Below, piece by piece: positions 1-32,770 of a stretch of DNA of 64,000 nucleotides (its first letter is position 1; each line of letters opens with the position of its first letter). The DNA is from Candidatus Binatia bacterium. Lineage in GTDB: Bacteria; Desulfobacterota; Binatia; Bin18. A model generated the notes under the pieces. The model was not told the origin of the DNA. It saw nothing but the letters and a program-made list of their open reading frames with translations, and did no database searches. A program made the translations under genes and the position numbers. Location: positions 32,001 through 96,000 of the forward strand of contig CAXXHG010000024.1 in the NCBI GenBank assembly GCA_963666315.2, in the 5' to 3' direction.

Positions 1-1213
1 CTCTGTTTTGGCGCGGTGTTCTTTTTCGTGGTACCCTCGTTGTAACTTTTTCGCGATGAATCGTTTGATTTGCCCGTTATAAGGTCTTTGAAGCTTCTTG
101 GGGCATCGTCGCCTTGGACACTGCGCAGATGGTCGAGCTGCGCACGGAGATAGGACTCGGCTGAGGCACGGCTGTTGCCGCTGATCGCCCGTACTGCGTC
201 AAGCGGCTGGTTTTCCACGATTACTTTCTGGGTCATTCACGTGCCCTTCAAATCGTGGAGCCAGAGCCCGACGATGCCTGTTTTTTTCCGGGCCTGGCGG
301 AAGGGCCACTCGACTTTGCTGTATGCGACCGGTTGCCCGGCGGGCGCCAGAAATAGGCGGTTGCTCAGGGATCTTATTTTTTTGCCTTTGCGCGCCTCCC
401 AGAGGGTGAGCAAGGTCTCGGCCGCATATTGGCTCAACGGCACGAGACGCGGCTTTTTGGTTTTGGTGTGGGTGGAGGTGACGCGGATAAGCGCCTGGTC
501 AAAGTCGATGGTCGGTGGCATGGGGTCGTTCCACTCACCTGTTGGCCATTCGAGCTGTATCACCTCGTTGGCCCGCATACCTGTCTGACGTTGCAGGATG
601 AGGGGCGGGCGCGCATAGTCGGCATGGCGTCCAATATCTGGGCGAGCTCTTCTGGTGACGCGATACGCGTCCGCTTGTTGTTCTCTTGCTCTAAATGGAT
701 CACTGGGCGTCGGTCGATCTTCCCGCCTTGTTCGGCCAGGATGAACATGGAGCGTAGGAGTGCCAGCTCCCTGTTCATCCTGGCGATGGAAGGGGGGCGT
801 TTGTGACGTGTGATCTGCTGTCCGCGCCACAGTTTGTATTCTGCGACACGACTCGTTGTGACGTCTTCGAGTCGATCTTCTCCGAAGAAGTCTGTGAGTG
901 ATCGTGCGGAATAATGGTCTCTCCTGATGCTGCGTTTGTTGGCGTGGAGGGTCAGCCAGGTCTGCGCCCACTCTGCAAAGGTCAGGTGGTTGCGCTCCTG
1001 CTCTTGTTGCTCACGGTCGAAGTCGAAGCGCTGGGCATTTTGGACCAAGCGGCGGTCACGTTCCTTGAGCGCGAATCTGAGATTGTCGCCGCAGGGAAAG
1101 CGCCGCCGGACTTGTTTCCAGTCACGGAAGGCCACGTAGTACTGGAGGCGCTGCTTGGCGTCTTGAGTTGTGTATTCCTGGGTCGCGATGTGATGGTGTT
1201 TTTTGCGTGGCAT
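1..1213 (-). pseudogene. Tyrosine recombinase/phage integrase, disrupted by a frameshift (~620) and an in-frame TGA (237-239); runs off the window start
   Basis: N-terminal half in ORF 560-1213 (core-binding-like, 'SIARMNRELALLRSMF'). Catalytic half in ORF 237-971 ('TGMRANE', 'TKTKKPRLVPL', 'LHDLKGT'). Reading past the TGA gives 'MTQKVIVENQPLDAVRAISGNSRASAESYLR', which includes a plausible catalytic Tyr. Confidence 0.85.
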
Positions 1214-1560: not shown

Positions 1561-1654
1561 GCCCTGAGCCAAGACCTATGTTTCTAGAAATCGGGGCTAT
1601 CCCTAAAAGGTAATGAGGACGTATCCCTAGAGGAAGCGTCTTTTTGAAGTCTAC

Positions 1655-1790
1655 CGGCTCCCAAACACGGGATTATGATTCCGAGACAGGGCGATGGACG
1701 GCGAAAGATCCGATTCGGTTTGGTGGGAGTGATATTAATCTCTACGAATATGTCTTCAATGATCCGGTAAATGAAGTAGAGTATAAGCCA
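1655..1790 (+). pseudogene. RHS repeat-associated core remnant
   Basis: '[35 protein letters not shown]' matches the RHS core C-terminal signature. The remainder of the gene is absent. Confidence 0.8.
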
Positions 1791-1804
1791 ACCAACGATT
1801 GTCC

Positions 1805-2644
1805 ATGTCGAGCATCTTTTTTATCTTTTTCATTTGGGTCTCAGCCTGTGCCCTTGCTGGCTGCCTGGAATTCAAGGGCGACCCGCCTGAACTGGGTCAC
1901 TATGCCTATGGCCCCGATCAATCTGTAACAAGGTGTGTCTTAAACGAACGACAGGGCAGGGGTGGCGTGACGAATGACGAGCAATCAGAAAGCGGAATTA
2001 CATTCTCCGTCCGAACGCCGGTCAATTATGACCCCACGCTCTCTCATCCGCTCCTCATGGTATACGCCCCTGCTGGATCGAGCCGTTTTCGCTCCGAGCG
2101 TTTTACTGGTCTGACTTTTGCAGCCACTGCGGCTGGGTTTGTGGTCGCCTACGCGGATGCGCGCCGACTCTCGCTCGACGGTATTCCGGACCTGGGGACT
2201 ATCCCTCAGCTCATTGCAAAAAAATGGTGTATCGATGAAAAGCGCATCTATCTGACTGGCCATTCCGATGGCGGCACGGTTGCGCTTGCTCTCGCGCTCT
2301 TAGACGAGACGCGCCATATCCCGGCTGCTATTGCTCCGAGCGCGGCTGGATTCACGGAGGCGGATTTAGAAACGTTTATGTGTCCAGACGCGCTGCCCGC
2401 TATGATTTTGCACAGTGCCGATGATCAGCTTTTCCCTGGGTACGGAGCGGAAATCGCTTCTTGGTTGGCCGCTTGTAATGGATGTCAGGCGCATCCCGGT
2501 GAAAAGGACGAAAACGGGTGTATGACCTACTCCGGCTGCGAGGAGGGAAGGCAGACTGTGTATTGTGAAGGAACAGGCGCGCATAGTGTATGGCCCACTC
2601 TCGATACCGTACTCCTTTCTTTTTTCGCGGGCAAACCTCAGTAG
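1805..2644 (+). CDS. PHB-depolymerase/LpqC-family alpha/beta-hydrolase, predicted lipoprotein
   Basis: Lipobox 'LAGC'; '[15 protein letters not shown]' nucleophile elbow; 'ILHSADD' Asp region; 'GAHSVWP' His; 'NGC' motif. Confidence 0.8.
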
Positions 2645-2676
2645 TGGCGGGGGCAGGGGCACGGCATGCTGCGTAC

Positions 2677-2720
2677 GGGCGGGTGCTGGGCGGGTGCTGG
2701 GTGTGTGCTGGGTGTGTGAG
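2677..2720 (+). repeat. 11-bp G-rich tandem repeat x4
   Basis: GGGCGGGTGCT GGGCGGGTGCT GGGTGTGTGCT GGGTGTGTGAG. Confidence 0.85.
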
Positions 2721-2796
2721 GAGTTGTCTGTATAGCTTCAGCCTGCTATCAGAATGCTGTTTATGTAGCTGATACTGTTGGTGAATGGTTGAAATT

Positions 2797-2862
2797 TCAG
2801 AATTATTCTGAGAATAATTCTCAGAATAATTCTCAGAATAGTTGCTATAATAGTTACTATAG
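2797..2862. promoter_or_regulatory. Overlapping 7-1-7 Fur-box-like palindromes with a 12-bp period
   Basis: TCAGAAT-T-ATTCTGA (2797-2811, perfect), TGAGAAT-A-ATTCTCA (2809-2823, perfect), TCAGAAT-A-ATTCTCA (2821-2835). AT-rich and directly before the ATG at 2863. Confidence 0.55.
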
Positions 2863-3450
2863 ATGAGTAGTGCCAGCCGTATCTTCTTTTCTCTCTTGTT
2901 GCTGACAGTGATTGGTTGCTTAGGCTCCCCTGTCGCGTGGGCGCATCGAGACAGAGGACCGGATGACCCCTGTCGACGGGAAATCGGAACTTCGCTCCTC
3001 CATATCACCGTCTACCAGACCCAGTTTGACCCCGTGGCTGAATATTGTGAAGAAGTCCCACACGCGGGGAAGGCCTTCTTAGTTGTAGATGTGACCCCGG
3101 ATCTGTGGGGGATGCCCATCGGGGTGGAACTCGTTGCGACAAATGAAGTCGGCCAGACGCGTACTATCCTCTCGCTGCCTACACAAGTGTATGAGCGCGG
3201 GGTGGCCAATACGGAAGTGGTTTTGAACCCTGAGGTCAGCTATGAGGTGCGCGTTGTCTTAGAGCTGGGATCCGACCGAGAACCGCAGGAATTTTCATTT
3301 CCCTTTCAGGTTGCAGCATGGTATAAGGCCCTGATCATCCCAGCCCTGATTGTGCTCGGGCTGATCGTTATCATGGCCGTATCCGTAGTTCGGTATAATG
3401 TAGTCTCGCGGCGGGAAGAAGCGCTAGCGGAACAAATGGATGCAGTATAA
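2863..3450 (+). CDS. PmoD/AmoD-family periplasmic copper protein, copy 1
   Basis: Signal peptide AWA|H; 'DPC-x9-HITVYQ...EYCEEVPHAGKAFLVVD' PmoD/AmoD pattern; C-terminal TM anchor. Confidence 0.8.
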   Translation: MSSASRIFFSLLLLTVIGCLGSPVAWAHRDRGPDDPCRREIGTSLLHITVYQTQFDPVAEYCEEVPHAGKAFLVVDVTPDLWGMPIGVELVATNEVGQTRTILSLPTQVYERGVANTEVVLNPEVSYEVRVVLELGSDREPQEFSFPFQVAAWYKALIIPALIVLGLIVIMAVSVVRYNVVSRREEALAEQMDAV

Positions 3451-3513
3451 GGTGATAGCATCACAAAGTGACAACGTCACCAACACAGGCGCGAATATAG
3501 AGGAGGGACACTT

Positions 3514-4362
3514 ATGGCTCAGGCACAAGCTGTGCAAAAGGCACCAAAGGGTTCTGGCGACGGCTCGATGACGAGTGGTAGCCCTGTCAATCCGATGGAC
3601 TGGTCGGTTGGATGGCATCCGTTGTTCTGGGGCTGCGGGCTCATCATGTTAGCCAACGTCTTTTTCTGGTACTGGAATTACGCCTTCATGTTAACGGCTG
3701 GACTCAACTCGGCCAGTCCGGAATTCAGCACGTATTACATGACGCTGTTCTGGGGCGAGCTCATCGTCTTAGGCATCTTTAGTGGCGTATGGTTTGGCTG
3801 GTTGATACGGACCGGCCGTGCCATTCAAGGCCAAGAGTGCTCGCCTGCCGAAGAGGTACGCCGGATCGCAATTTTGTGGAGCCTCATTGGCGCGCTGAGT
3901 CTGTCCGTTTATATGGAAGCGAGCTTCTGGCCCAACTGGGATGGATCTTGGCATCAAACCATGGTGCGGGACACCGCGCTCACGCCGACCCATATTCCGA
4001 TGTTTTATTTCTTCTTCCCCCTGTCGGCCATTCTGGCCATCGGCACCTATGTCTACGGGCGGTATTACATTCCCGCTCTGTACGGTAAAGACAAGGGCTT
4101 TCCGTGGTCGTTCTTCTTGTTGATTAGTGCGTGTGCGCTCGAAGTTATGGGTGTTGCGTTCAACGAATGGGGCCATAGTCTGTGGATCTCGGAGGAGATT
4201 TTCTCCGTGCCCTTTCACTGGCCGTTCGTCATCTATGGCTGGCTTGCCGCCGGCATGTTCGCCGTGTGGGGTGAGACTGCCCTGCGTCTATACGAGGTTG
4301 AGAAGATTGAGGAGGACGCCAATTTAGAATCCTCGCTTGAGCCGAACATGGTCGCTGACTGA
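3514..4362 (+). CDS. pmoC: Copper membrane monooxygenase subunit C (PmoC/AmoC family)
   Basis: 'DGSWHQTMVRDTALTPTH' (CuC Asp/His/His) and 'NEWGHSLWISEEIFSVPFHW' (CuD Asn/His/His); RBS GGAGG. Confidence 0.95.
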   Translation: MAQAQAVQKAPKGSGDGSMTSGSPVNPMDWSVGWHPLFWGCGLIMLANVFFWYWNYAFMLTAGLNSASPEFSTYYMTLFWGELIVLGIFSGVWFGWLIRTGRAIQGQECSPAEEVRRIAILWSLIGALSLSVYMEASFWPNWDGSWHQTMVRDTALTPTHIPMFYFFFPLSAILAIGTYVYGRYYIPALYGKDKGFPWSFFLLISACALEVMGVAFNEWGHSLWISEEIFSVPFHWPFVIYGWLAAGMFAVWGETALRLYEVEKIEEDANLESSLEPNMVAD

Positions 4363-4442
4363 TACTGGTACAGGTTTGCGTTCGATTGAACACGGATAAC
4401 CTCAGATAACCTCGGGGATCCTGGTACAGAGAGGCAGCACGC

Positions 4443-5246
4443 ATGGCGGCAGGCACGACAACGGTAACGGACCTTGCAGACGCAGCCGAACGGCAAAAAC
4501 GGCTCGAACTCAAGGAACTGCTCAACAAAAAATACAAATGGCTAGACTGGAAGTGGGACCTCGTCTTCTGGACCACGGCCATCTTCGTGGTTGCCGGCGC
4601 TGGCGATATTACCAAGCAGTTGTTCGCCGGCGATTGGGACTTCTGGACTGACTGGAAAGATCAGCAGTGGTGGCCGGTTATCACGGCCTTTGCCACCATC
4701 ATCATCCCGTCCGCGCTCCAATACATTCAGTGGGCAGCCTGGCGGTTTCCGACCGGCGCGACCTACACCGCCTGCTGCATGTTTATGGCGGCCTGGGTGG
4801 GGCGTTATTTTCAGTGGGATTTGGCAACCCACTACCCGCTGAACTTTGTGTGGCCCATCTCCTTGGTGTGCGCTGGGATCTTGATGGACTGGACCCTGAT
4901 GAAGACGAAGAGCTTCATCCTGACATCACTCGTTGGCGCGCATGTCTGGGCGATCGCGGTGTGGGCGTATAATTATGTTCCGTTGGCTGCCTTTCTGCAG
5001 CCGGCCCATTTTATGGACCATGTAATCACGATCGCGGATGTCCAAGGAATCGCGTATATCCGGTCACAGACGCCGGAATACCTGCGCATGATCGAGCGCG
5101 GTGCGTTGCGCAGTTTCCTGGGTGAGACCCAGTATGTCTCGCTGGTGTTCGGTGGTACTGTCGCGTTTCTCGGATACTGGGTGGGTCAGTTCATTGGCCG
5201 CTACTTGGCAATTTGGCCGATTCGACGCTACTTGAAAACCTTGTGA
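4443..5246 (+). CDS. pmoA: Copper membrane monooxygenase subunit A (PmoA/AmoA family), divergent
   Basis: 'GDWDFWTDWKDQQWWP', 'RFPTGAT', 'YPLNFVWP', 'YIRSQTPEYLRMIERGALRSF'. Confidence 0.95.
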   Translation: MAAGTTTVTDLADAAERQKRLELKELLNKKYKWLDWKWDLVFWTTAIFVVAGAGDITKQLFAGDWDFWTDWKDQQWWPVITAFATIIIPSALQYIQWAAWRFPTGATYTACCMFMAAWVGRYFQWDLATHYPLNFVWPISLVCAGILMDWTLMKTKSFILTSLVGAHVWAIAVWAYNYVPLAAFLQPAHFMDHVITIADVQGIAYIRSQTPEYLRMIERGALRSFLGETQYVSLVFGGTVAFLGYWVGQFIGRYLAIWPIRRYLKTL

Positions 5247-5253
5247 GACGGCT

Positions 5254-5589
5254 ATGATGAGCGTAGCGAAATCGGTCAGAAATTGCATAGTGCCGTTTGT
5301 GTTCATGTGTATTGCGCCCTCGCTGGCGCATGCGCACGGGATGGACGCGGCGGCGATGGCGCCACCTCTTATTACCTCCGGGCTGCTGGCGTTTGTGTGT
5401 TATTGGTTGGTGATGTTGTGGCCTGCGTCAAAAAGAGAAGGCGCCTGGATGAATGGGTCTGGGGCTGCGCAGCCCTCGGAAAAGTTTCAGACCATACGCA
5501 TTAAGCGCAAGCCGCGCCTGCGTGTCATAGAGACGAGCAGGCAGCGCGAGGACGACCAGCCGGCGACAAGGAGAGCGGCCGATGGCTAG
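5254..5589 (+). CDS. Small single-pass membrane protein between the A and B subunits (unknown family)
   Basis: Starts 8 nt after the pmoA stop and overlaps the pmoB start by 8 nt. Signal-like 'AHA|HGMDAAAM', TM 'LITSGLLAFVCYWLVMLW', basic tail. Confidence 0.75.
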   Translation: MMSVAKSVRNCIVPFVFMCIAPSLAHAHGMDAAAMAPPLITSGLLAFVCYWLVMLWPASKREGAWMNGSGAAQPSEKFQTIRIKRKPRLRVIETSRQREDDQPATRRAADG

Positions 5590-6829
5590 GCGATTCGTCA
5601 TCAGCGTCTGCACGCTGGCTCTTGCCGGACTTATCAGTGTCCCCAGGGTGTTCGCTCATGGTGAAGCCGCTGACGAGCCTTTTCTCAAGAACATGACCAC
5701 GGCGTTTTTCAATGTATCGATTTCTCCCACCGAAATCGAAGTCGGAGAGCCTATTCGCATTACTGGTTCCGTGAAGATCTTGGAGATCTGGCCGCATACC
5801 TTAGATACACCGGAAATGGCCTCCATTATTCCCGTCGTGCCTGGTCCGGTGTTTGTCTTGAGGGAACGGCTGGTCAATGGGCAGGCCTCGATAGGTTCGT
5901 TCTTCGCGCAAAAAGGCGGCATTTATGAGTTCGACATGGAGCTCTTGGGCAAAGAACCCGGAGACTGGCACGTCCATCCCGGTATAGCCATCCAGGGGAC
6001 GGGCACGCTGCTGGGACCAGGTGAATGGGTCCGAGTCAAACCCAGCGCTACGCCGCTTGAATTTCCGGTGACCTTGCTGTCCGGGGAGACGATCGAACTC
6101 AGCACGTATGGCGGTCAATTCGTCTGGTGGTGGTCATTTGCCGGATTCTTGCTCGGTGTCGTCTGGATATTGTACTGGACGCTGAACAAAAGGACGGTGG
6201 CAACCCTTGCCGTAACTATCCAGCTTCCGGTCAATGATGATGCGCCCGACATTGGCTTGATCACCCCGCGTGACCACATGTGGATGAATGTCATTGCCGG
6301 CGTCACCTTGGTGATGCTCGTTGTCGGCTGGACCTATGCCACAACAAATGCACCGGTCCGGTGGCCGCAGCAGACCGACTGGTTTACGCCCCGCTTTATT
6401 TCTTCGGGCGAAAAGATGGCCGAGGTGCATACCAACGGAGCAACCTTTGATGAGGCGTCCGACACCCTGGAAATGAAGCTCCAGGTTACGAATGTGCTAG
6501 ACAGCGAAATCCAGCTCAAGCAACTCATCGTGGCCATGGCGACGTTTGTGAACGGCGGCGAGCAGGAGCAAGCCCAAGCCGGGCCGAGTGATTTCGTTGG
6601 CGCTCTGGAAGTGTCGCCGAATGGAACCGTTGCCCCTGGAGAAACCAAAGATCTCACGTTGACGGTAACGAGCACGCTGTTCAGTCAAGAACGGCTGATA
6701 CCTCAGAACGCCCCGCAGCAATTTCTTGGTGGAGTCCTCCGGTTCGAGAATGCGCAGGGCGAGCATGAATTAGTGACGGTTCGTTCGGGTGTCATATCAA
6801 CACAGTTCCGTTCGACCTACCGCCCGTAA
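5582..6829 (+). CDS. pmoB: Copper membrane monooxygenase subunit B (PmoB/AmoB family)
   Basis: Signal 'VFA|HGEAADEPF' (N-terminal His), 'PGDWHVHP' (CuB His-x-His), 'LLGPGEW', two TM helices, second cupredoxin domain 'VAPGETK'. Confidence 0.95.
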   Translation: MARRFVISVCTLALAGLISVPRVFAHGEAADEPFLKNMTTAFFNVSISPTEIEVGEPIRITGSVKILEIWPHTLDTPEMASIIPVVPGPVFVLRERLVNGQASIGSFFAQKGGIYEFDMELLGKEPGDWHVHPGIAIQGTGTLLGPGEWVRVKPSATPLEFPVTLLSGETIELSTYGGQFVWWWSFAGFLLGVVWILYWTLNKRTVATLAVTIQLPVNDDAPDIGLITPRDHMWMNVIAGVTLVMLVVGWTYATTNAPVRWPQQTDWFTPRFISSGEKMAEVHTNGATFDEASDTLEMKLQVTNVLDSEIQLKQLIVAMATFVNGGEQEQAQAGPSDFVGALEVSPNGTVAPGETKDLTLTVTSTLFSQERLIPQNAPQQFLGGVLRFENAQGEHELVTVRSGVISTQFRSTYRP

Positions 6830-6882
6830 ACGGTCTTGCCGGCAGCCCGACTCCCCCTGTTGGATGGAATCCAGGAATCAAA

Positions 6883-7464
6883 TTGGTGGGCAGTATCTTG
6901 TCAGTGTTCTCTCTCGTCGCTATCTTCCTCGTGCCAATATCGGCCTGGGCGCACGGTGGCGTCGCGATCGACATGGACCCGTGCGTGCAGCGTGCCGGCG
7001 CCTATCTGGTCCATTTTTCTGCGTACCAACCGCAAGTGAATGCAATCGAGGAATTCTGTAGTAGCGTTCCGCAAACGGGCAATGTGATCCTCGTTTTCGA
7101 TCTGATTGATCCCGAACTGCGCAAGAAATCGGCTGCCGTTCGCATTGTTGAAGAGACCGGGGCGGCTGAACCTCGTCTGCTGCTCGATATCCCGCCAAAA
7201 ATCTATCCCAATGGGGTCGTGAATGCTGAGGTTAGGCTTGATACGCCGGGCCGGTATACGGCCATTCTGACGATTGATGATGTCGACGACTCGATCGAAT
7301 TTCCTATCCGCGTGGCGGTGCTCTCGACCACGATGATGGTGCTGATCGGTGGCATCGTGGTCGGCAGTGGTGTGGGCTATTATGCGGTCAGTCGGAAACA
7401 GGGTTGGCCTCCATTCAAAGCAAAAAACGAGTCGTCACTCCGGTTGGTGAAAGGGGAAGGATGA
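6883..7464 (+). CDS. pmoD: PmoD/AmoD(AmoE)-family protein, copy 2
   Basis: 'AWA|HGGVAIDMDPC...VHFSAYQP...EEFCSSVPQTGNVILVFDLID'; C-terminal TM anchor; lies directly after the B subunit. Confidence 0.88.
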   Translation: MVGSILSVFSLVAIFLVPISAWAHGGVAIDMDPCVQRAGAYLVHFSAYQPQVNAIEEFCSSVPQTGNVILVFDLIDPELRKKSAAVRIVEETGAAEPRLLLDIPPKIYPNGVVNAEVRLDTPGRYTAILTIDDVDDSIEFPIRVAVLSTTMMVLIGGIVVGSGVGYYAVSRKQGWPPFKAKNESSLRLVKGEG

Positions 7465-7494
7465 GCGGAAAACGCCCTGCCGGCGGGAGAGGCC

Positions 7495-7520
7495 CCGTTC
7501 GTGCTGAGCTTGTCGAAGCA
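7495..7520. repeat. REP-like half element
   Basis: CCGTTCGTGCTGAGCTTGTCGAAGCA; same family as the paired element at 20721-20806. Confidence 0.7.
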
Positions 7521-7544
7521 GGAACGCGAAGGGATAATGATCAA

Positions 7545-7664
7545 ATGGAAACAATATCGGAGCGCCAAACGAAGCGCGTGGCGGACTATGCGGCAGGCCG
7601 TGCAGATGCTCAAGCAGTTTTGAAGGACCTTGAGATGCTGCAGTTAGAGTTGCTGAAAAACTGA
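7545..7664 (+). CDS. Possible 39-aa peptide
   Basis: 'METISERQTKRVADYAAGRADAQAVLKDLEMLQLELLKN', co-oriented in the cluster with a purine-rich upstream region. No recognised homology. Confidence 0.3.
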   Translation: METISERQTKRVADYAAGRADAQAVLKDLEMLQLELLKN

Positions 7665-7730
7665 GACCACGACTATCCTTTGTCCCTTCCCCCCTTTCCC
7701 TTACGCGTTCCTCACAGTACATGGTGGACG

Positions 7731-9425
7731 ATGCTGGTGCGTCGTTTGCTCTTTGTTTTTCTCTTGTGTGGCCTCGTCGCGGGTAGTGCGATCTTTGTCG
7801 TGCCGCGCTCCTGGCTGCCCGCTCCACTCAAAAACCTGGCGTATCGCTATATTGGTGAAACAGCCTATCGAGCCCCCCCGGAAAGTCGTCACATTGATCC
7901 GGTGCCAGTCGAGCCGTTTTGTCTGGATAAGCATCCGGACTGGCGTAAACGCCAGACGGTTGAAGGCGTAAGCATAGAAGAATCGCCTGTGTGTGATCCG
8001 GATAATCCAGCCGAAGTCGCCGCTTTTGTCAAAGGCACGAACAATATTTCTGTGCATACATTGATGCAGACACGGCTGACGCCGACTACGGTGCTGAAAG
8101 AGAACGACGTGGACGGTGATGGCGATCCGGATGAGATCCATATCCGGTTCGAGGTAGTGGAGTTAAACGGGTACTCGCCGGATGATCCTGCTCCCTTTCC
8201 GGCGTATGCCATCGCTCCCGGAGTACAGCCCGGCCTGTGGGTATTTGCTCCGAAATCGCGCGGCATGGCGACCGAAAATTTTGCAAGCGAGGACGCCCAC
8301 GCCACTCTCCGCGCCCCGTCGCCGGTTATCCGCATTGAACAGGGCGACACGCTACGCGTGACGTTGGAAAATACCCACTATCTGCCGCATACGATACATT
8401 TCCACGGAGTTGACCATCCCTTCGTCGATGCCGCCGGGGAGGGCAATGACGGTGTCCCTATTACGAGTGAAATGCCGGTCGCGCCGGGTGAGAGCCGAAT
8501 ATATGAAATGACTCCACGTCAGACCGGGACCATGTTTTATCACTGCCATGTCCAACCCCAGGTGCATATTCTCATGGGACTGCAAGGCATGTTTGTGGTT
8601 GAGGAGAATCGGCCGAATAATTGGCTACAGACCTTAAACGTCGGCGCTGGTCGGGTCCGGCATTCGTCGGTAGCTATCCGTGAGACTTTTGATCGCGAGT
8701 TTGATCTGCACTATCAGGATATCGATCGTTCGCTGAATAATATGATTCAGACTGCCAATGATCCGCGTCTGATCGCGCAAGCAACGAATCGGCGGTACGA
8801 TATCACGGATCACAGTCCGGACTACTTCTTACTGAACGGGCGCTCGTTTCCGTACACGATGCGTGAATCCCTTATTGTGGTTGTGCCTGATGAAGATATC
8901 AAACTGCGCGTATTGAACGGTGGTGCCGAAGGGCTGTCGCTCCATACGCACGGACATAAAGTCACGATTACCCACTATGACGGCGTCGAGCATAATCCGG
9001 CTGCGCAAATCACGCGCGATGTCGTCTGGGTCAGCCCCGCCCAGCGGGTGGACCTGCACCTCAAAACAATAAACGACGGGCTGCATAATTACGGCGCAGG
9101 TATCTGGCTCCTACACGACCACAAGGAAAAGGCGATTACGACCGACGGCATCAACCCTGGTGGGAATATCAGCGCCATTGTGTACAAAGCGTTTCTGGGC
9201 GAAGCCGGCCGGCCTCAAACCCAGGGCATGGATTGGGCGCCGTTTTTTACCGAAGAGTATTACCAGAAGAAAATTCCGATCTGGGCCGGATTGGATGAGA
9301 GAGGACTGCTTGGAGAGGCCGGTGGTGAGCCTTTCCCTTTCAGCTATGCGCTCTTGTGGGGCCTGGGCATAGGGCTCTTACTCAGCGGTGCGTTTGCGCT
9401 CGGTCGGTCCGTGCGGCGAGCGTGA
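7731..9425 (+). CDS. Multicopper oxidase, two-domain type-C-like, with N-terminal extension and C-terminal membrane anchor
   Basis: Domain 1 'HTIHFHG' and 'YHCHVQPQVHILMGL' (T1 site); domain 2 'LHTHGH' and 'WLLHDH' (no T1 Cys); hydrophobic N- and C-termini. Confidence 0.88.
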   Translation: MLVRRLLFVFLLCGLVAGSAIFVVPRSWLPAPLKNLAYRYIGETAYRAPPESRHIDPVPVEPFCLDKHPDWRKRQTVEGVSIEESPVCDPDNPAEVAAFVKGTNNISVHTLMQTRLTPTTVLKENDVDGDGDPDEIHIRFEVVELNGYSPDDPAPFPAYAIAPGVQPGLWVFAPKSRGMATENFASEDAHATLRAPSPVIRIEQGDTLRVTLENTHYLPHTIHFHGVDHPFVDAAGEGNDGVPITSEMPVAPGESRIYEMTPRQTGTMFYHCHVQPQVHILMGLQGMFVVEENRPNNWLQTLNVGAGRVRHSSVAIRETFDREFDLHYQDIDRSLNNMIQTANDPRLIAQATNRRYDITDHSPDYFLLNGRSFPYTMRESLIVVVPDEDIKLRVLNGGAEGLSLHTHGHKVTITHYDGVEHNPAAQITRDVVWVSPAQRVDLHLKTINDGLHNYGAGIWLLHDHKEKAITTDGINPGGNISAIVYKAFLGEAGRPQTQGMDWAPFFTEEYYQKKIPIWAGLDERGLLGEAGGEPFPFSYALLWGLGIGLLLSGAFALGRSVRRA

Positions 9426-9438
9426 AGGGAAGCGTAGT

Positions 9439-10155
9439 ATGGGGGTACATTTTCAAAAGATCGTGCGGAAAATCATGAGAGTACGAAAAGGGCAGCCACA
9501 TAGGGCTGCCCCTACACTGCTTGTGCTCATTATCTCGGTGCTTCTTTCAAGTCTAGTCAGTTCGGCCCAAGAGCATCAGCACCACCCGATGCAGCATAAT
9601 ATGCAGCTAGATGAGACCGGCATGGTCATGAACGAAAACACCGACCAGTTGCCGCGTGGCTGTCCTCGTATTGCGGGCGAGCAATCAATTACTGTCCGCG
9701 CAGGGAAAGAATTTGCCTCTCCAGGCAGCATGTTTTCTTATGATCAGCATGAATGGCATGTCGAGCCGTGTACCAAACTCACCGTGACGCTTGAGAATAC
9801 GGACAACGTCCGCCATCAGTGGATGCTGCACGGCCTGCCGCGCTATGTGTATCTGCAGGGCATGTTCACTTTAGAGGTGGCCGGCCGAGGGCAACGCACG
9901 GGTACGTTTATCCTCCCCGCAGGCAACAAAACCTATCTGGTTCACTGCGACGTGTCCCAGCATATGGAAAAAGGCATGAAAGCGCAGCTGAAGGTCGGCA
10001 CTGGGGACGGCGATTTGCCGAGTATTCCCGGCATAACCGGCCCACGTGTGTATGATACGTATCCCCTGGTCTGGAACTGGTGGACGCATGGGGCTTTGCT
10101 ACTGACGGGGATAGTCAGTGTGGTTTTTGTCGGCAGGCACTTGCATATTTTCTGA
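9439..10155 (+). CDS. Membrane-anchored cupredoxin (type-1 blue copper)
   Basis: 'HQWMLHG' and 'YLVHCDVSQHMEKGM' (H-C-H-M); His/Met-rich N-terminus 'QEHQHHPMQHNM'; C-terminal TM. Start codon uncertain (9439 or 9475). Confidence 0.85.
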   Translation: MGVHFQKIVRKIMRVRKGQPHRAAPTLLVLIISVLLSSLVSSAQEHQHHPMQHNMQLDETGMVMNENTDQLPRGCPRIAGEQSITVRAGKEFASPGSMFSYDQHEWHVEPCTKLTVTLENTDNVRHQWMLHGLPRYVYLQGMFTLEVAGRGQRTGTFILPAGNKTYLVHCDVSQHMEKGMKAQLKVGTGDGDLPSIPGITGPRVYDTYPLVWNWWTHGALLLTGIVSVVFVGRHLHIF

Positions 10156-10189
10156 GAGATCTGAAGCTCGCGAGCTTGACTGCCTTCCC

Positions 10190-10218
10190 TTGACCTTCAA
10201 AATAAAAATGAGTAGGGT
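10190..10218 (+). promoter_or_regulatory. Sigma70-like promoter of the PQQ dehydrogenase
   Basis: TTGACC-N17-TAGGGT. Confidence 0.5.
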
Positions 10219-10236
10219 TCGACCACATTCGTGTAA

Positions 10237-10271
10237 TAAGACATCGCAGTAAGACATCACAGTAAGACATG
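10237..10271 (+). repeat. 13-bp direct repeat x2.7 in the PQQ-ADH leader
   Basis: TAAGACATCGCAG TAAGACATCACAG TAAGACATG. Confidence 0.85.
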
Positions 10272-10290
10272 ATTTGGGGAGGAATAACCC

Positions 10291-12003
10291 ATGCGAGATT
10301 TCTGGTTGCGGGGATTGCTATATTTTACCCTCGCTCTCGTCCTTGTATCGCCCTCGACTCTGTATGCCGATCATCATGGACAGAGTGACCATGCCCTCAA
10401 GCCGGTCACGCATGAGCGCTTGGTTAATAGTGCCGCCAATTATGCTGACTGGCTGATGTACGGCGGGAATTATGAAGGCTGGCGTTTCAGCGCACTCGCC
10501 GACATCGACCGTCAAAATGTAAAGAAGCTCCAGGCTGCGTGGATTTTTCAGACCGGCGTGCCTGCCCAAATGCAGGCTTCGCCCGTGGTGGCCGATGGCG
10601 TGATGTATGTGACTGCGGCGTATAACAAAATTTTCGCCTTAGACGCGGCGACGGGCAAGCCGCTGTGGAAATACGACCATTCATTGCCGGATGATATGCG
10701 CATATGCTGTGGTCCCGGCAACCGTGGCGTCGCGCTTGCCGGGGATAAAGTCATCATGGCCACCCTGGATGCGCGTGTTGTGGCGCTGGATCGCAAAACC
10801 GGCGAGGTGGTGTGGAATACAGAGGCCGACAACTACGCCCGAGGCTTCAGCTTCACGCTCGCGCCGCTGATTGTCAAAGACAAAGTCATCGTCGGCATTG
10901 CCGGTGGTGAATACGGCATACGCGGTTATATCGACGCGTATGATGTTGAGACCGGAGAGCGTCAGTGGCGGCGTTACACTGTCCCCGACGAGGGTGAGCC
11001 CGGAGTCGAAACCTGGGCGGGCGACTCATATAAAAACGGCGGGGCCCCGGCTTGGGTGACCGGTTCGTATGACGCTGACCTGGACCTTGTATATTGGGCT
11101 ACCGGAAACCCTGCGCCGGACTGGAACGGTGATGGACGTGAAGGGGATAACCTGTACTCCAACTCCGTTCTGGCACTTGATCCGGAGACGGGCGAGGTCA
11201 AATGGTATTTCCAGTTCACCCCGCACGATGTCTGGGATTATGACGGCAATACCGGCCTGTTCCTGCTTGACGTTATGCGTAGTGGTCAATCTGTCAAAGC
11301 CTTGGCCCAGCCGAATCGTAATGGCTTCATGTATGTGCTGGATCGCACCGATGGAAAATTCCTGCACGGCGCGCAATATGTCGAACAGCTGAACTGGGCG
11401 AAGGGGCTAGATGAAAAGGGCCGCCCACTGGTTGACCCCAAATATGTTCCCATGAAAGGCGGCAATCTGGAACTGATCTGTCCGGGCAATGCGGGCGGCC
11501 AAAATGGGTCGTACGCTGCGGCCTATAGTCCGCGTGTTAACCTCATTTTTGTGCCGACGATTGAGAGCTGCGCCAAAATGGAAAAAGCGAAGTCTATTTT
11601 CATCAAAGGCATTCCGTTCTGGGGCGGCGGTCCTGGCCAAACGCAAGGCGACCTGGGGGTCGCGTATGGCCATGTCTCAGCTATTGATCCTACCAGCGGC
11701 GAAGTAAAATGGCGCTATAAGGACGAGTGGCCCATGATGGGTGGTGCACTTGCGACCGCAGGCGGATTAGTTTTTACCGGGAACCAACAGGGCTATGCGC
11801 TCGCGCTAGACGAGGCGACTGGAAAAGTCTTATGGAAGTTCCAAACCGGCTCGGCTGTCCGCGGGCAACCGATTACGTATAAAGTTGGTGGCAAGCAATA
11901 TGTGGCCGTGCCGAGTGGGGCCGGCGGCTTGGTCGTCGATATTGTGGGAAAATACCCGCACACGACACTCGGCAGTTCGGTTGCCGTGTTTGCGCTGCCT
12001 TAG
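10291..12003 (+). CDS. PQQ-dependent alcohol dehydrogenase (methanol/ethanol family), probable lanthanide type
   Basis: Signal peptide; vicinal 'CCG'; 'GGEYG' Glu; 'TGNPAP' Asn; 'PHDVWDYDG' D-x-D; Trp-docking propeller motifs; no cytochrome c domain. Confidence 0.92.
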   Translation: MRDFWLRGLLYFTLALVLVSPSTLYADHHGQSDHALKPVTHERLVNSAANYADWLMYGGNYEGWRFSALADIDRQNVKKLQAAWIFQTGVPAQMQASPVVADGVMYVTAAYNKIFALDAATGKPLWKYDHSLPDDMRICCGPGNRGVALAGDKVIMATLDARVVALDRKTGEVVWNTEADNYARGFSFTLAPLIVKDKVIVGIAGGEYGIRGYIDAYDVETGERQWRRYTVPDEGEPGVETWAGDSYKNGGAPAWVTGSYDADLDLVYWATGNPAPDWNGDGREGDNLYSNSVLALDPETGEVKWYFQFTPHDVWDYDGNTGLFLLDVMRSGQSVKALAQPNRNGFMYVLDRTDGKFLHGAQYVEQLNWAKGLDEKGRPLVDPKYVPMKGGNLELICPGNAGGQNGSYAAAYSPRVNLIFVPTIESCAKMEKAKSIFIKGIPFWGGGPGQTQGDLGVAYGHVSAIDPTSGEVKWRYKDEWPMMGGALATAGGLVFTGNQQGYALALDEATGKVLWKFQTGSAVRGQPITYKVGGKQYVAVPSGAGGLVVDIVGKYPHTTLGSSVAVFALP

Positions 12004-12093: not shown

Positions 12094-12119
12094 GTAGGGG
12101 CGGCCGACCGGTCGCCCCT
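12094..12119. repeat. GTAG-type REP palindrome between convergent genes
   Basis: GTAGGGGCGGCCGACCGGTCGCCCCT; relatives at 9490, 54431, 57282 and 61335. Confidence 0.7.
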
Positions 12120-12945: not shown

Positions 12946-13803
12946 ATGAAAATTGGCGTCTTTGAGTTTGTTATTGATACATCGGTTGATCCCGCTGTGA
13001 TCGCAAAGCGAGCCGAGGAGTTGGGTTTTGGCTCGTATTGGGTGCCTGAGCATGCTGTTATTCCGATTAAAACGAGTACGCCCTATCCAGGCTCGGACGA
13101 CGGAATAATTCCAGATGCATATGGGCGTATCACCGATCCGTTTGTCTCCCTCGCTCGTGCGTCTGCGGTGACCAAGACTATTGAGCTCGGCACCGGTATT
13201 TGTCTGATTCCAGAACATAATCCGCTCGTACTGGCTAAGGCCGTGGCGACTTTAGACCATTTTTCAGGTGGCCGTTTTATCTTCGGCATTGGGGCCGGCT
13301 GGCTTAGAGAAGAAACCGAAATCATGGGTGGTGATTTTGACCACCGCTGGGGCCAGACCAAGGATGCCGTCCTGGCCATGAAGGAATTGTGGACCCAGGA
13401 AGAGGCCGAGTATCACGGCAAGTATTACAACTTCCCGGCTGTCCGCTCTTTCCCCAAACCTGCCAGGAAACCACATCCCCCTATTTTCATGGGCGGATCG
13501 TCCAAATATGTCTTCAAACGTGTGGTCGAATGGGGCGACGGCTGGATGCCTGTTCTCTCGCCGGTCGAATATATCAAAGAAGGGCGGCAACGCCTCAATG
13601 AGCTGGCTGAGCAAGCCGGCCGCGACCCCAAGGAAATCGCTGTCATGGCCTTCGGCTGGCCTGGAAAATTCCGTACCGGAGACGAAATCAAAGAACTTGA
13701 ATCAGCCGGTGTCGATCATGTCACTATTTGGTTGCAGCAAAGCGAAAGCGGAGAAGAGGCTGTCGTGGCGGAATTGGAGTCGTTAGCGAAGTCAGTTCTA
13801 TAG
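12946..13803 (+). CDS. LLM-class (probably F420-dependent, Rv2161c-like) oxidoreductase
   Basis: 'AEELGFGSYWVPEH', 'DPFVSL', 'LAKAVATLDHFSGGRFIFGIGAGW', 'PKPARKPHPPI'. Confidence 0.9.
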   Translation: MKIGVFEFVIDTSVDPAVIAKRAEELGFGSYWVPEHAVIPIKTSTPYPGSDDGIIPDAYGRITDPFVSLARASAVTKTIELGTGICLIPEHNPLVLAKAVATLDHFSGGRFIFGIGAGWLREETEIMGGDFDHRWGQTKDAVLAMKELWTQEEAEYHGKYYNFPAVRSFPKPARKPHPPIFMGGSSKYVFKRVVEWGDGWMPVLSPVEYIKEGRQRLNELAEQAGRDPKEIAVMAFGWPGKFRTGDEIKELESAGVDHVTIWLQQSESGEEAVVAELESLAKSVL

Positions 13804-17144: not shown

Positions 17145-17558
17145 GTGAAATACTGTATTGCCCTTTGTCTCATCCTGCTCATCTTGCCCCTCCTCTCGTG
17201 CGGTCCGCCGCCGTCTCCAGAGATCTTGCTTGGGGAAGGCACGGTCAAAAAAGTGGTTGTTCCGGACAGGCGGGTTGTCATCGCGCATGAAGATATTCCA
17301 GGCTTTATGCATGCCATGACCATGAGTTTCGAGGTCAATAAGCCGAGCTTGCTGCATAATCTCGAGCCTGGGGACCGAGTACGATTTACGCTGGAGATGA
17401 CCAAGCTCACACTCTACTTGGTCGCTGTGGAGAAAATCGCAGCACTGAAGAGCGTGACTTCACGAGCTGAATCCGAGACCAAGCAGGGGGAGGCGGGTGC
17501 AGACCTGACAAAAACGGACGATCATTCAAACTCTTCGTCCTTCTTCGGCCAGAAATAG
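17145..17558 (+). CDS. CusF-like copper-binding lipoprotein
   Basis: Lipobox 'LLSC'; 'IAHEDIPGFMHAMTMSF' His/Met/Met motif; 'LEPGDRVRFTL'. Confidence 0.85.
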   Translation: MKYCIALCLILLILPLLSCGPPPSPEILLGEGTVKKVVVPDRRVVIAHEDIPGFMHAMTMSFEVNKPSLLHNLEPGDRVRFTLEMTKLTLYLVAVEKIAALKSVTSRAESETKQGEAGADLTKTDDHSNSSSFFGQK

Positions 17559-31984: not shown

Positions 31985-32770
31985 TTACTTTTTGGTCACG
32001 TGTTTTTCCGCGAGCAGTTTCTTTTGTAATTTATACGCTGGCCTCGCCTGCTCTCGCTCACCGCGGATGAGGTAAAATCGAACCGCCTGTCCCAGCGTTT
32101 CTATCGCTTTATCCCGCTGGTCGGTTTTACTATAGGCGACGCCTAAGCCATCGTGGGCAACAGGATCGCGAGGATTTTGCTTAATGACCTCTTGGTACGC
32201 CTGGATAGCCTCTGGGTATTGTCCTATGCCCGTATAAGCCGCAGCCAGGTGGGTATGGGCCGTACTCTTGTCTGGATCGAGGCGAATGGCCGCTTGATAT
32301 TCTTGTATGGCTTGATTTATTTGGCCATGGCGTTCTAACTCCTGACCCAGTTCAAAATGGGCGGCCGCTGATGAGGCATTAATACCCAGGGCCTGTTGGA
32401 AAGCCGCGCGTGCCTTGTCAAATTGCTTTTCTCGGCGGAATGCCATCCCTTCGTTGACGTAATAGCCTTCGAGGTATCTGCTCGCGCCTGAGTGGCCGGG
32501 ACTGAGCCGCAGGACGGTTCGATAGGATTGGAGAGCATCCTCAATTGCCCCAACTTTTTCACGCACGACGCCCAGTCGGTAGTGGGCATCGACATGATTG
32601 GGGTCAATCTCGGTGAGAATCCAATGGTATTCTGCCATGGCTTCACCCCAGCGCATTTCGGCCTCAAATTTCTGACCACTATCGATGTAATGCTGGGGAT
32701 CGGCTCCCATCAGAAGAAAAGCACTGAGGCTTATCCCGAGTGCAAGCCGACTGACATATCTTCGTTTCAT
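31985..32770 (-). CDS. TPR-repeat protein
   Basis: Multiple TPR units ('AHYRLG', 'AHFELG', 'AHDGLGVAY'); signal peptide. Confidence 0.88.
   Translation of the reverse strand: MKRRYVSRLALGISLSAFLLMGADPQHYIDSGQKFEAEMRWGEAMAEYHWILTEIDPNHVDAHYRLGVVREKVGAIEDALQSYRTVLRLSPGHSGASRYLEGYYVNEGMAFRREKQFDKARAAFQQALGINASSAAAHFELGQELERHGQINQAIQEYQAAIRLDPDKSTAHTHLAAAYTGIGQYPEAIQAYQEVIKQNPRDPVAHDGLGVAYSKTDQRDKAIETLGQAVRFYLIRGEREQARPAYKLQKKLLAEKHVTKK

Follow-up and report, generated by a model that had tools for sequence, protein, structure and literature searches.

This study concerns a gene cluster around the copper membrane monooxygenase (CuMMO) genes xmoC, xmoA and xmoB of a Candidatus Binatia bacterium (lineage Bin18, assembly GCA_963666315.2). 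The cluster lies in a stretch of 64,000 nucleotides, positions 32,001 to 96,000 of contig CAXXHG010000024.1, which is called the window here. CuMMOs were described by Murphy 2021 (PMC8262859) in Bin18 (2/2) and Binatales (9/48), with gene orders CAB, CAxB or CAxxB and with pmoD in 5 of 11 genomes; most of them were placed near putative butane monooxygenases under the label 'Actinobacteria/SAR324-affiliated'. Moreover, pmo-like genes are present in nearly all Bin18 genomes (PMC11264602), and a 2026 preprint places a 'Putative pmoA Binatales' among the hydrocarbon monooxygenases (HMOs) (bioRxiv 10.64898/2026.02.02.703227). In sponges, bin18 transcribes a gene annotated pmoA, copy unspecified, which was read there as a methane sink (PMC9999580). 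The substrate of the Binatia CuMMOs is posed as an open question in several papers, including PMC8262859, PMC11264602 and the preprint. We show that the locus is a real and conserved representative of this already described kind; what is new is a testable argument regarding its substrate.

The ten-gene cluster and its conservation

Ten open reading frames (ORFs), all on the plus strand, span positions 1799/1805 to 12003 with intergenic gaps of -8 to 266 bp (Table 1). A preliminary description of this DNA had reported ten co-oriented genes in a non-canonical host; the genes lie where it placed them, and the host belongs to the Binatia. Hydropathy profiles reveal hydrophobic N- or C-terminal segments in nine of the ten proteins. 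The signal peptide of the alcohol dehydrogenase was read from the sequence only.

Table 1. Genes and signals of the cluster, with positions counted from the first letter of the window
Feature	Position	Strand	Basis and remarks
Esterase	1805..2644	+	Pfam/NCBIfam matches, active-site residues; start 1799 or 1805
PmoD homologue D1	2863..3450	+	PDB 6CPD match (E 2e-4), alignment
XmoC	3514..4362	+	Pfam AmoC (PF04896), 2e-44
XmoA	4443..5246	+	Pfam AMO (PF02461), 1e-55
X, inserted gene	5254..5589	+	Alignment, motif
XmoB	5582..6829	+	Pfam Monooxygenase_B (PF04744), 3e-71
PmoD homologue D2	6883..7464	+	PDB 6CPD match (E 2e-7)
Two-domain multicopper oxidase (MCO)	7680..9425	+	Pfam, PDB relatives; start may be 7731
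Type-1 cupredoxin	9388..10155	+	Motif; start probably 9439 or later
Pyrroloquinoline quinone (PQQ) alcohol dehydrogenase (ADH)	10291..12003	+	TIGR03075, 6ZCV
Strong terminator-like hairpin 3' of ADH	12096..12119	+	Consensus match only; faces convergent adenylate kinase gene

The full gene order is found in 15 of 20 loci (L014-L032 and L055), three of the 15 carrying a frameshift in the esterase or B gene. One of the other five is truncated, one has the ADH gene 3.6 kb further on, and three have it upstream or lack it. A promoter scan of the cluster stayed at chance level (7 matches, 7.0 expected), and two RNA-type sequencing runs contain 5-6% of the sampled words.

An inserted gene between A and B and pmoD genes nearby had first been taken as unusual. 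Both CAxB/CAxxB orders and pmoD are, however, published for Bin18/Binatales (PMC8262859), and neither the inserted gene nor the PmoD link nor the host is new, since all were reported in Murphy 2021 and later papers. Most likely the locus belongs to this Binatota/Binatia CAxB set, with which it shares the class, the host, the gene order, the pmoD genes and the placement on the HMO side. Two CuMMO copies in some genomes, as here, are likewise matched by the published description, in which x is merely 'hypothetical'.

The monooxygenase, its clade and its accessory proteins

XmoC, XmoA and XmoB are encoded in one putative operon and score above the cut-offs of PF04896, PF02461 and PF04744, placing them in the CuMMO superfamily. 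They remain below the NCBIfam equivalog cut-offs for particulate methane monooxygenase (pMMO) and ammonia monooxygenase (AMO), with score/cut-off in bits of 172/318 and 198/290 for A, 184/395 and 260/336 for B, and 148/281 and 166/319 for C. Concerning the copper sites (PMC13058606, PMC8262859), the CuC (D143/H147/H160) and CuD (N217/H221/H235) ligands of XmoC are invariant and the CuB ligands H26/H130/H132 of XmoB are intact; the bis-His site is absent. The residue of subunit C to which specificity has been ascribed, Asp in methane enzymes (PMC8630023), is Ala155 in XmoC, the HMO state, and the Asp of pMMO is not present. In XmoA, with reference positions numbered as in M. capsulatus Bath via an alignment to 1YEW, His38 is replaced by Asp55, His40 by Thr57, Met42 by Gln59 and Glu100 by Ala117. 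Among 120 XmoA homologues, 115 have Asp or Asn for His38, 118 have Thr for His40 and 112 have Ser, Ala or Thr for Glu100. Asn141 and Glu210 of XmoC occur in 22/22 rows of the clade described below and in 0/10 other rows. These clade-wide substitutions suggest a remodelled substrate pocket, as had been proposed for this locus.

A tree built from concatenated C, A and B sequences (32 rows) puts the source XmoCAB into a clade of 22 rows (support 100/100) with members from Binatia, Actinomycetota, Dormiibacterota and Chloroflexota. Its sister position to the HMOs of Mycolicibacterium chubuense NBB4 and Rhodococcus WAY2 is weak (88/86). TUSC-like, pXMO and verrucomicrobial enzymes form the other side of the tree. 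An XmoA-only tree, in which the outgroup was not monophyletic and long branches drew warnings, extends the clade to Carbonactinospora, Lentzea and Caldinitratiruptor; XmoA is 64-71% identical in Carbonactinospora thermoautotrophica, Caldinitratiruptor microaerophilus and a Lentzea strain. The source enzyme shares 29-38% identity with other CuMMO types. The fragments L057 and L058 were left out of the alignments and L077, which has no C, out of the concatenated tree; the trees were built without named proteobacterial pMMO, AMO, Nocardioides CF8 or SAR324 references.

Judged from its sequence, XmoCAB is a CuMMO whose branch within the HMO superclade is uncharacterised. It shares Ala at the XmoC site and the CuB, CuC and CuD ligands with HmoCAB of NBB4 and WAY2, but differs in subunit identity (31-44%), clade and neighbouring genes; HmoCAB moreover keeps His38 of XmoA and Glu154 of XmoC, both lost here. 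XmoA thus stands apart from the NBB4/WAY2 HMO, pXMO and the Methylacidiphilum enzyme PMO3, and not inside a characterised clade with the present layout. The accessory genes are kept beside xmoCAB in the host family, as had been expected; as a ten-gene unit, however, they do not define the clade. Binataceae lack the MCO, the esterase and this ADH (0/41 each), and the members outside Binatia lack all seven accessories in tblastn searches.

xmoB is present in all 40 genomes of the family, and most of these hold two CuMMO copies. The second copy of the source genome (C43:124283-127300, L059) is a deep-branching CAB with an XmoA 33% identical to that of the cluster, Ala at the specificity site and His38/Met42 kept. 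It is present in most genus members; among those listed, this assembly alone has a frameshift that splits its xmoB. The TUSC-like XmoC of L062 and L068 has Glu at the specificity site, as in PMO3, and that of L069 and L070 has Ser. A 514-residue database protein on the HMO side of the tree (P0126) is a fusion of XmoC to XmoA. Four loci titled 'uncultured Enterobacteriaceae' (L035, L038, L055 and L058) are Binatia-type CAxB loci nesting among Binatia, and the titles are probably wrong.

The inserted gene X encodes a small protein with a signal peptide, a predicted mature His-Gly N-terminus, one membrane helix ending in YW-x3-LWP and a basic tail. Ala-His, Pro, Tyr-Trp and Leu-Trp-Pro are invariant in 23/23 rows, and the full motif is found in 112 of 120 homologues. 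No match was obtained in Pfam or NCBIfam and no usable one in the ESM Atlas. Of 251 Binatia genomes, 56 contain xmoB and 53 X, which always adjoins a CAxB-type B; the three xmoB genomes lacking X comprise two with TUSC-like copies only and one with a broken locus. CAxxB results from a tandem duplication of X (L042, G107). A solitary second copy of X, away from any CuMMO, exists in most genus members (19 genomes); it adjoins fatty-acid oxidation genes at L066 (~5870-6090) and L067 (~5930-6130). X would be a small His-first membrane protein tied to the XmoCAB clade, and its sequence makes it a candidate fourth subunit or copper chaperone. When mature X was modelled together with A, C and B, the complex scored 0.00 and the fold of the partners was uncertain, a result that we count neither for nor against such a role.

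A small ORF with an Ala-His-then-helix pattern directly follows xmoB in 7 of 8 cases (NBB4, WAY2 and five of six Gram-positive loci of the clade), compared with 3 of 158 small membrane proteins taken as controls; the pattern was chosen after the ORFs had been viewed. In profile comparisons with X the best of these ORFs rank 3, 5 and 8 among 166 sequences (E 0.7-1.2, not significant), so that on sequence X and the ORFs are alike in architecture only. Directly 3' of hmoB, the ORF encodes a small Ala-His-Gly single-helix protein at NBB4 L063:8056-8271 and WAY2 L064:5051-5332. It is possibly an overlooked HMO accessory, standing after B in the HmoCAB operon while X precedes B in the source cluster.

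D1 and D2 match no family model but are homologues of PmoD (6CPD). Both contain Cx7LxHxnC and a C-terminal membrane anchor, with a predicted mature N-terminal His in D1 and His-Gly in D2. They share the conserved cysteines and His with PmoD, AmoD and AmoE but lack the CuA Met, which is replaced by Leu in both and occurs in 0/30 rows of the D2 set. CuA formation was found only with Cx7MxHxnC, and pmoD has been noted beside MCO genes (PMC6189053); a CuA role for D1 and D2 was rejected, as that motif is missing. The best solved relatives of the MCO are the two-domain MCOs 2ZWN and 3G5W, to which it adds a long N-terminal region, hydrophobic segments at both ends and an axial Leu. Its type-1 ligands lie in domain 1 only and HDH lies in domain 2. 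Two-domain MCOs are named as types A, B and C, and the cluster MCO fits type C. The type-1 axial position is Leu in 120/120 homologues, which suggests a high-potential site. The cupredoxin is membrane-anchored, with an HC-x4-H-x4-M type-1 motif, a His/Met-rich N-terminus and a weak Cu-oxidase_2 match; no significant sequence match was found in the PDB. The esterase is an alpha/beta serine hydrolase resembling poly(hydroxybutyrate) depolymerases, with G-x-S-x-G, Asp and His and a lipoprotein-type N-terminus.

The MCO occurs in 41 of 251 Binatia genomes, all CuMMO-positive, and in none of 195 CuMMO-negative or 41 Binataceae-type genomes. Homologues 59-60% identical exist in Nitrosococcus. The block D2-MCO-cupredoxin-esterase is also found 3' of the CAB genes of TUSC-like CuMMOs (L062 and L068). 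Because it flanks these unrelated CuMMOs too and the MCO has homologues in Nitrosococcus, we regard it as general CuMMO support; D1, D2, MCO and cupredoxin would serve copper handling or electron relay. Esterase, MCO and cupredoxin hence lose the value as substrate hints first given to them. We rejected the idea that the esterase provides an ester-derived substrate, as it accompanies TUSC-like CuMMOs and is found in 31 of 251 genomes and in none of 41 Binataceae.

The ADH passes TIGR03075, and its nearest structure is PedH (6ZCV; PedH/ExaF-like). The second Asp of a D-x-D motif marks lanthanide binding; here the motif lies at residues 316-318 and is kept in 20/20 rows. Together with an adjacent CC and the catalytic Glu and Asn, this predicts a lanthanide-dependent PQQ-ADH of the PedH/ExaF/XoxF type. 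Among 24 other genus members, 22 have this gene next to the cluster, as do 7/7 of a second genus; it is not on the contig of the cluster in the other nine family genomes. Elsewhere in the source genome there are a XoxF-like gene and, at C30:15638-19980 (L087), a paralogous PQQ-ADH (72%) with a XoxJ-like binding protein, a cytochrome c and a beta-propeller protein. L087 likely supplies the electron acceptor of the cluster ADH. The view of the cluster as a self-contained module is not supported: the likely cytochrome partner of the ADH is on another contig, and in relatives a GldA-type dehydrogenase adjoins the cluster.

Further features of the window were observed around these genes. The 266 bp between D2 and MCO (7465-7730) are an insert with a palindrome-like element and a short ORF, where relatives have ~30 bp. 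An F420-dependent oxidoreductase of the luciferase-like monooxygenase type (12946-13803, TIGR03619) is a constant neighbour of the cluster in the two main genera of the family. A small lipoprotein gene (17145-17558) lies 5 kb downstream of the cluster; we take its product to resemble a CusF-type copper-binding protein.

C3 enzymes in the neighbourhood

Clustering of the genes neighbouring 43 CuMMO loci revealed a zinc-dependent ADH (Zn-ADH) in 14, a GMC large subunit in 12, a small subunit with a twin-arginine translocation signal in 10, a DUF59 protein in 10, an amidohydrolase in nine and GldA in five loci. In plasmid searches, diiron monooxygenases of Bradyrhizobium, Rhodococcus and Azospirillum turned out to be surrounded by these genes as well. 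The Bradyrhizobium and Azospirillum clusters have the gene order alpha-reductase-beta-coupling, which defines group 5 of the soluble diiron monooxygenases (SDIMOs); ketones are proposed as usual substrates of one subgroup (PMC11825192), and Adh1 and an amidohydrolase lie within the acetone-induced Mim cluster (PMC7176365). Identity to the Bradyrhizobium genes is 67-75% for GmcA, 34-52% for GmcB, 47-64% for Zn-ADH, 53-71% for the amidohydrolase and 34-44% for DUF59. Of the 13 clade loci outside the Binatia subclade, eight have amidohydrolase and/or DUF59 genes alongside; the other five have little upstream flank. GmcAB, amidohydrolase and DUF59 were found in none of nine control CuMMO loci (NBB4, WAY2, pXMO, four TUSC-like and two second-copy loci). 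Adh1, amidohydrolase, DUF59, GmcAB and a sigma-54 regulator are common to the source clade and the group-5 clusters (PrmABCD/MimABCD). The enzyme family is wholly different, however, and neither SDIMO subunits nor their GroEL were found in the CuMMO loci examined. Nor do these loci hold an orthologue of the VOC protein or cytochrome c of Bradyrhizobium and Azospirillum; unrelated glyoxalase-family and cytochrome c genes recur in CuMMO loci.

Within Binatia, GmcA is present in 20 of 251 genomes, 19 of them with CAxB and 18 with GmcA within ~8 kb of it. A linkage of both GmcAB and pmoD to the CuMMO, as in PMO3, is seen in 18 of 53 CAxB genomes, but in 0/24 of the genus of the window and not in the source genome. 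In two genomes with both CAxB and TUSC-like copies (G151, G163), GmcA stands beside the CAxB copy. In the host family (f1, 40 genomes) six genomes have GmcA and the other 34 have GldA, with no overlap, and this swap is scattered over four genera. In 32 of 35 genomes (source genome counted) GldA and the cluster are no more than ~6 kb apart. As the genomes are kin, the GmcA and GldA counts are not independent and do not amount to a statistical test. The GldA of the source genome scores above the cut-off for the glycerol dehydrogenase subfamily. E. coli GldA reduces acetol to 1,2-propanediol (PMC5697356). Since two unrelated acetol-active enzymes alternate at the same locus, acetol/1,2-propanediol would be the product node.

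In the source genome the GldA gene is on contig C9; a rearrangement, with integrase remnants alongside, has separated it from the esterase. Relatives carry gldA where the source genome has such remnants: a split phage integrase at 237-1213 (minus strand) and 1644-1800 (plus strand) of the window, directly 5' of the esterase. The locus is rearranged in the source genome. A short stretch 5' of the esterase presumably resembles an RHS-core signature. The source genome also encodes glyoxalase I and glcD/glcF-like genes (37-42%).

A known parallel is the PMO3 cluster, described as converting acetone via acetol to pyruvate (PMC8630023, PMC12235487). One locus of Methylacidiphilum, which we equate with PMO3 because its specificity site is Glu, encodes a GMC protein 55% identical to Binatia GmcA. 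CuMMO, PmoD and the loss of PmoA His38 are common to both systems, and homologous GmcAB (55%/35%) to PMO3 and those CAxB loci that have it. The PMO3 enzyme is only 27-30% identical to XmoCAB, however, is not orthologous, and groups with other verrucomicrobial enzymes; its specificity site holds Glu and its CuB histidines are missing, in contrast to the Ala and intact CuB of XmoCAB. Moreover, the genus of the window has GldA and the PQQ-ADH instead of GmcAB.

Substrate readings and their meaning

From this neighbourhood we consider it somewhat probable (about 55%) that XmoCAB hydroxylates acetone, or another C3 compound, to acetol. The reaction would take place at the CuC/CuD site, perhaps with butanone as well, or with 2-propanol or propane en route, and XmoCAB would fill the slot held elsewhere by group-5 diiron monooxygenases (Prm/Mim) or PMO3. 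Most clade members would then oxidise acetol via GmcAB or Adh1. In the genus of the window a GldA-type dehydrogenase would instead interconvert acetol and 1,2-propanediol. Either this diol or 2-propanol would be the substrate of the periplasmic lanthanide PQQ-ADH, which would pass the electrons back to the chain. Substrate, dehydrogenase directions and accessory roles are what we infer from the genes, ligands, clade and neighbourhood patterns. The literature searched (titles and abstract openings, mostly open-access) gave no paper tying the clade to acetone, and the main text of PMC8262859 does not mention acetone, multicopper or glycerol.

Several points weigh against acetone. Its hydroxylation would have to be convergent, since XmoCAB is unrelated to PMO3 and has Ala where PMO3 has Glu. 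The source genome, 92% complete, lacks GmcAB, an Adh1 orthologue, the amidohydrolase and DUF59, its GldA is on another contig, and no phosphoenolpyruvate synthase above cut-off was found in it. Its three acetone-carboxylase-family operons, of which the one searched scores 436 bits, offer an alternative ketone route. They lie on C32, C18 and C37 (L082-L084), and their alpha subunits are 26-38% identical mutually. GldA is matched by glycerol and glycolaldehyde reductase models too. Group-5 accessories serve propane, tetrahydrofuran (THF) and dioxane oxidation as well (PMC11825192), for which reason they point more clearly to the C3/acetol node than to an exact substrate. Finally, the genomes behind the counts are related, and for every member acetone activity is read from sequence and neighbourhood.

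The strongest competitor, unlikely as we judge it, is a short-alkane or alkene monooxygenase (propane, butane, propene) like the NBB4 HMO, one of the actinobacterial HMOs characterised as oxidisers of C2-C4 alkanes and alkenes. In this reading the C3 accessories would process 2-propanol, acetone and 1,2-propanediol and the PQQ-ADH would oxidise the first alcohol. The weak sister position to the NBB4/WAY2 HMO, Ala at the XmoC site and the placement of Binatia sequences near butane monooxygenases in published trees (PMC8262859, PMC11264602, 10.64898/2026.02.02.703227) agree with it. So do the adjoining PedH-like ADH, which suits primary alcohols, and alpha/beta hydrolases 3' of xmoB in four loci. 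Identity to the HMO subunits is low, however, and the Gmc/amidohydrolase/DUF59 set is missing from the NBB4 and WAY2 loci. No SDIMO for the acetone step was found in the source genome, by a search without positive control response, and the second CuMMO of most genus members, with His38 and Met42 kept, could itself be the alkane enzyme.

Still less probable is another small polar substrate, such as acetaldehyde, an amine, a sulfur compound, a cyclic ether or 2-propanol, the last taken directly to 1,2-propanediol. It would suit the clade-wide polar substitutions in membrane helices (XmoA Asp/Asn55; XmoC Asn141 and Glu210), the THF and dioxane enzymes among the group-5 SDIMOs (PMC11825192) and the several diols accepted by GldA-type enzymes. 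The recurring neighbours, however, converge on a 2-propanol/acetone/acetol set, and no amine- or ether-specific family was found in at least 3 of the 43 clustered loci.

A methane monooxygenase, as assumed for sponge symbiont bin18, is very improbable. The transcripts annotated pmoA in sponges come from an unspecified copy (PMC9999580), and a XoxF-like gene and intact copper sites would fit methane; yet the subunits score below the pMMO cut-offs, carry Ala and not Asp at the specificity site and lie outside the pMMO/pXMO side of the tree, the neighbours are C3 and not C1 enzymes, and the preprint (10.64898/2026.02.02.703227) places the clade among hydrocarbon monooxygenases. Ammonia can practically be dismissed: AmoA/B/C_BACT scores slightly exceed those of the TIGR models and the MCO has Nitrosococcus homologues, but all three subunits fall far under the AMO cut-offs, share 29-38% identity with other CuMMO types and have neighbours for organic carbon. 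The earlier suggestion that the substrate is neither methane nor ammonia is on these sequences probably right.

Should acetone hydroxylation by XmoCAB be confirmed, a wider proposal could follow, which we offer tentatively and do not expect to hold in full. The clade, widespread in marine and soil Binatia, Actinomycetota, Dormiibacterota, Chloroflexota and Bacillota, may represent a copper acetone monooxygenase of separate evolutionary origin, the second of its kind, which took the place of the Prm/Mim diiron enzyme within that enzyme's own catabolic cassette; it may have a fourth, His-first subunit with a counterpart overlooked after hmoB in NBB4. The neighbourhood evidence yields a specific prediction, acetone to acetol, testable by expression or in cultured relatives such as Carbonactinospora thermoautotrophica, Caldinitratiruptor microaerophilus and the Lentzea strain. 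If true, the conserved pocket changes would offer a natural test of the determinants of CuMMO substrate choice, and Bin18 would possibly run two CuMMOs in relay. Binatia CuMMO transcripts in sponges have so far been read as methane oxidation (PMC9999580). The pmoA-like reads of this clade would then not be counted as methanotrophy, the clade would be a candidate biological acetone sink, and the Bin18 symbionts now taken for methane sinks would instead remove acetone and other oxygenated C3 volatiles.

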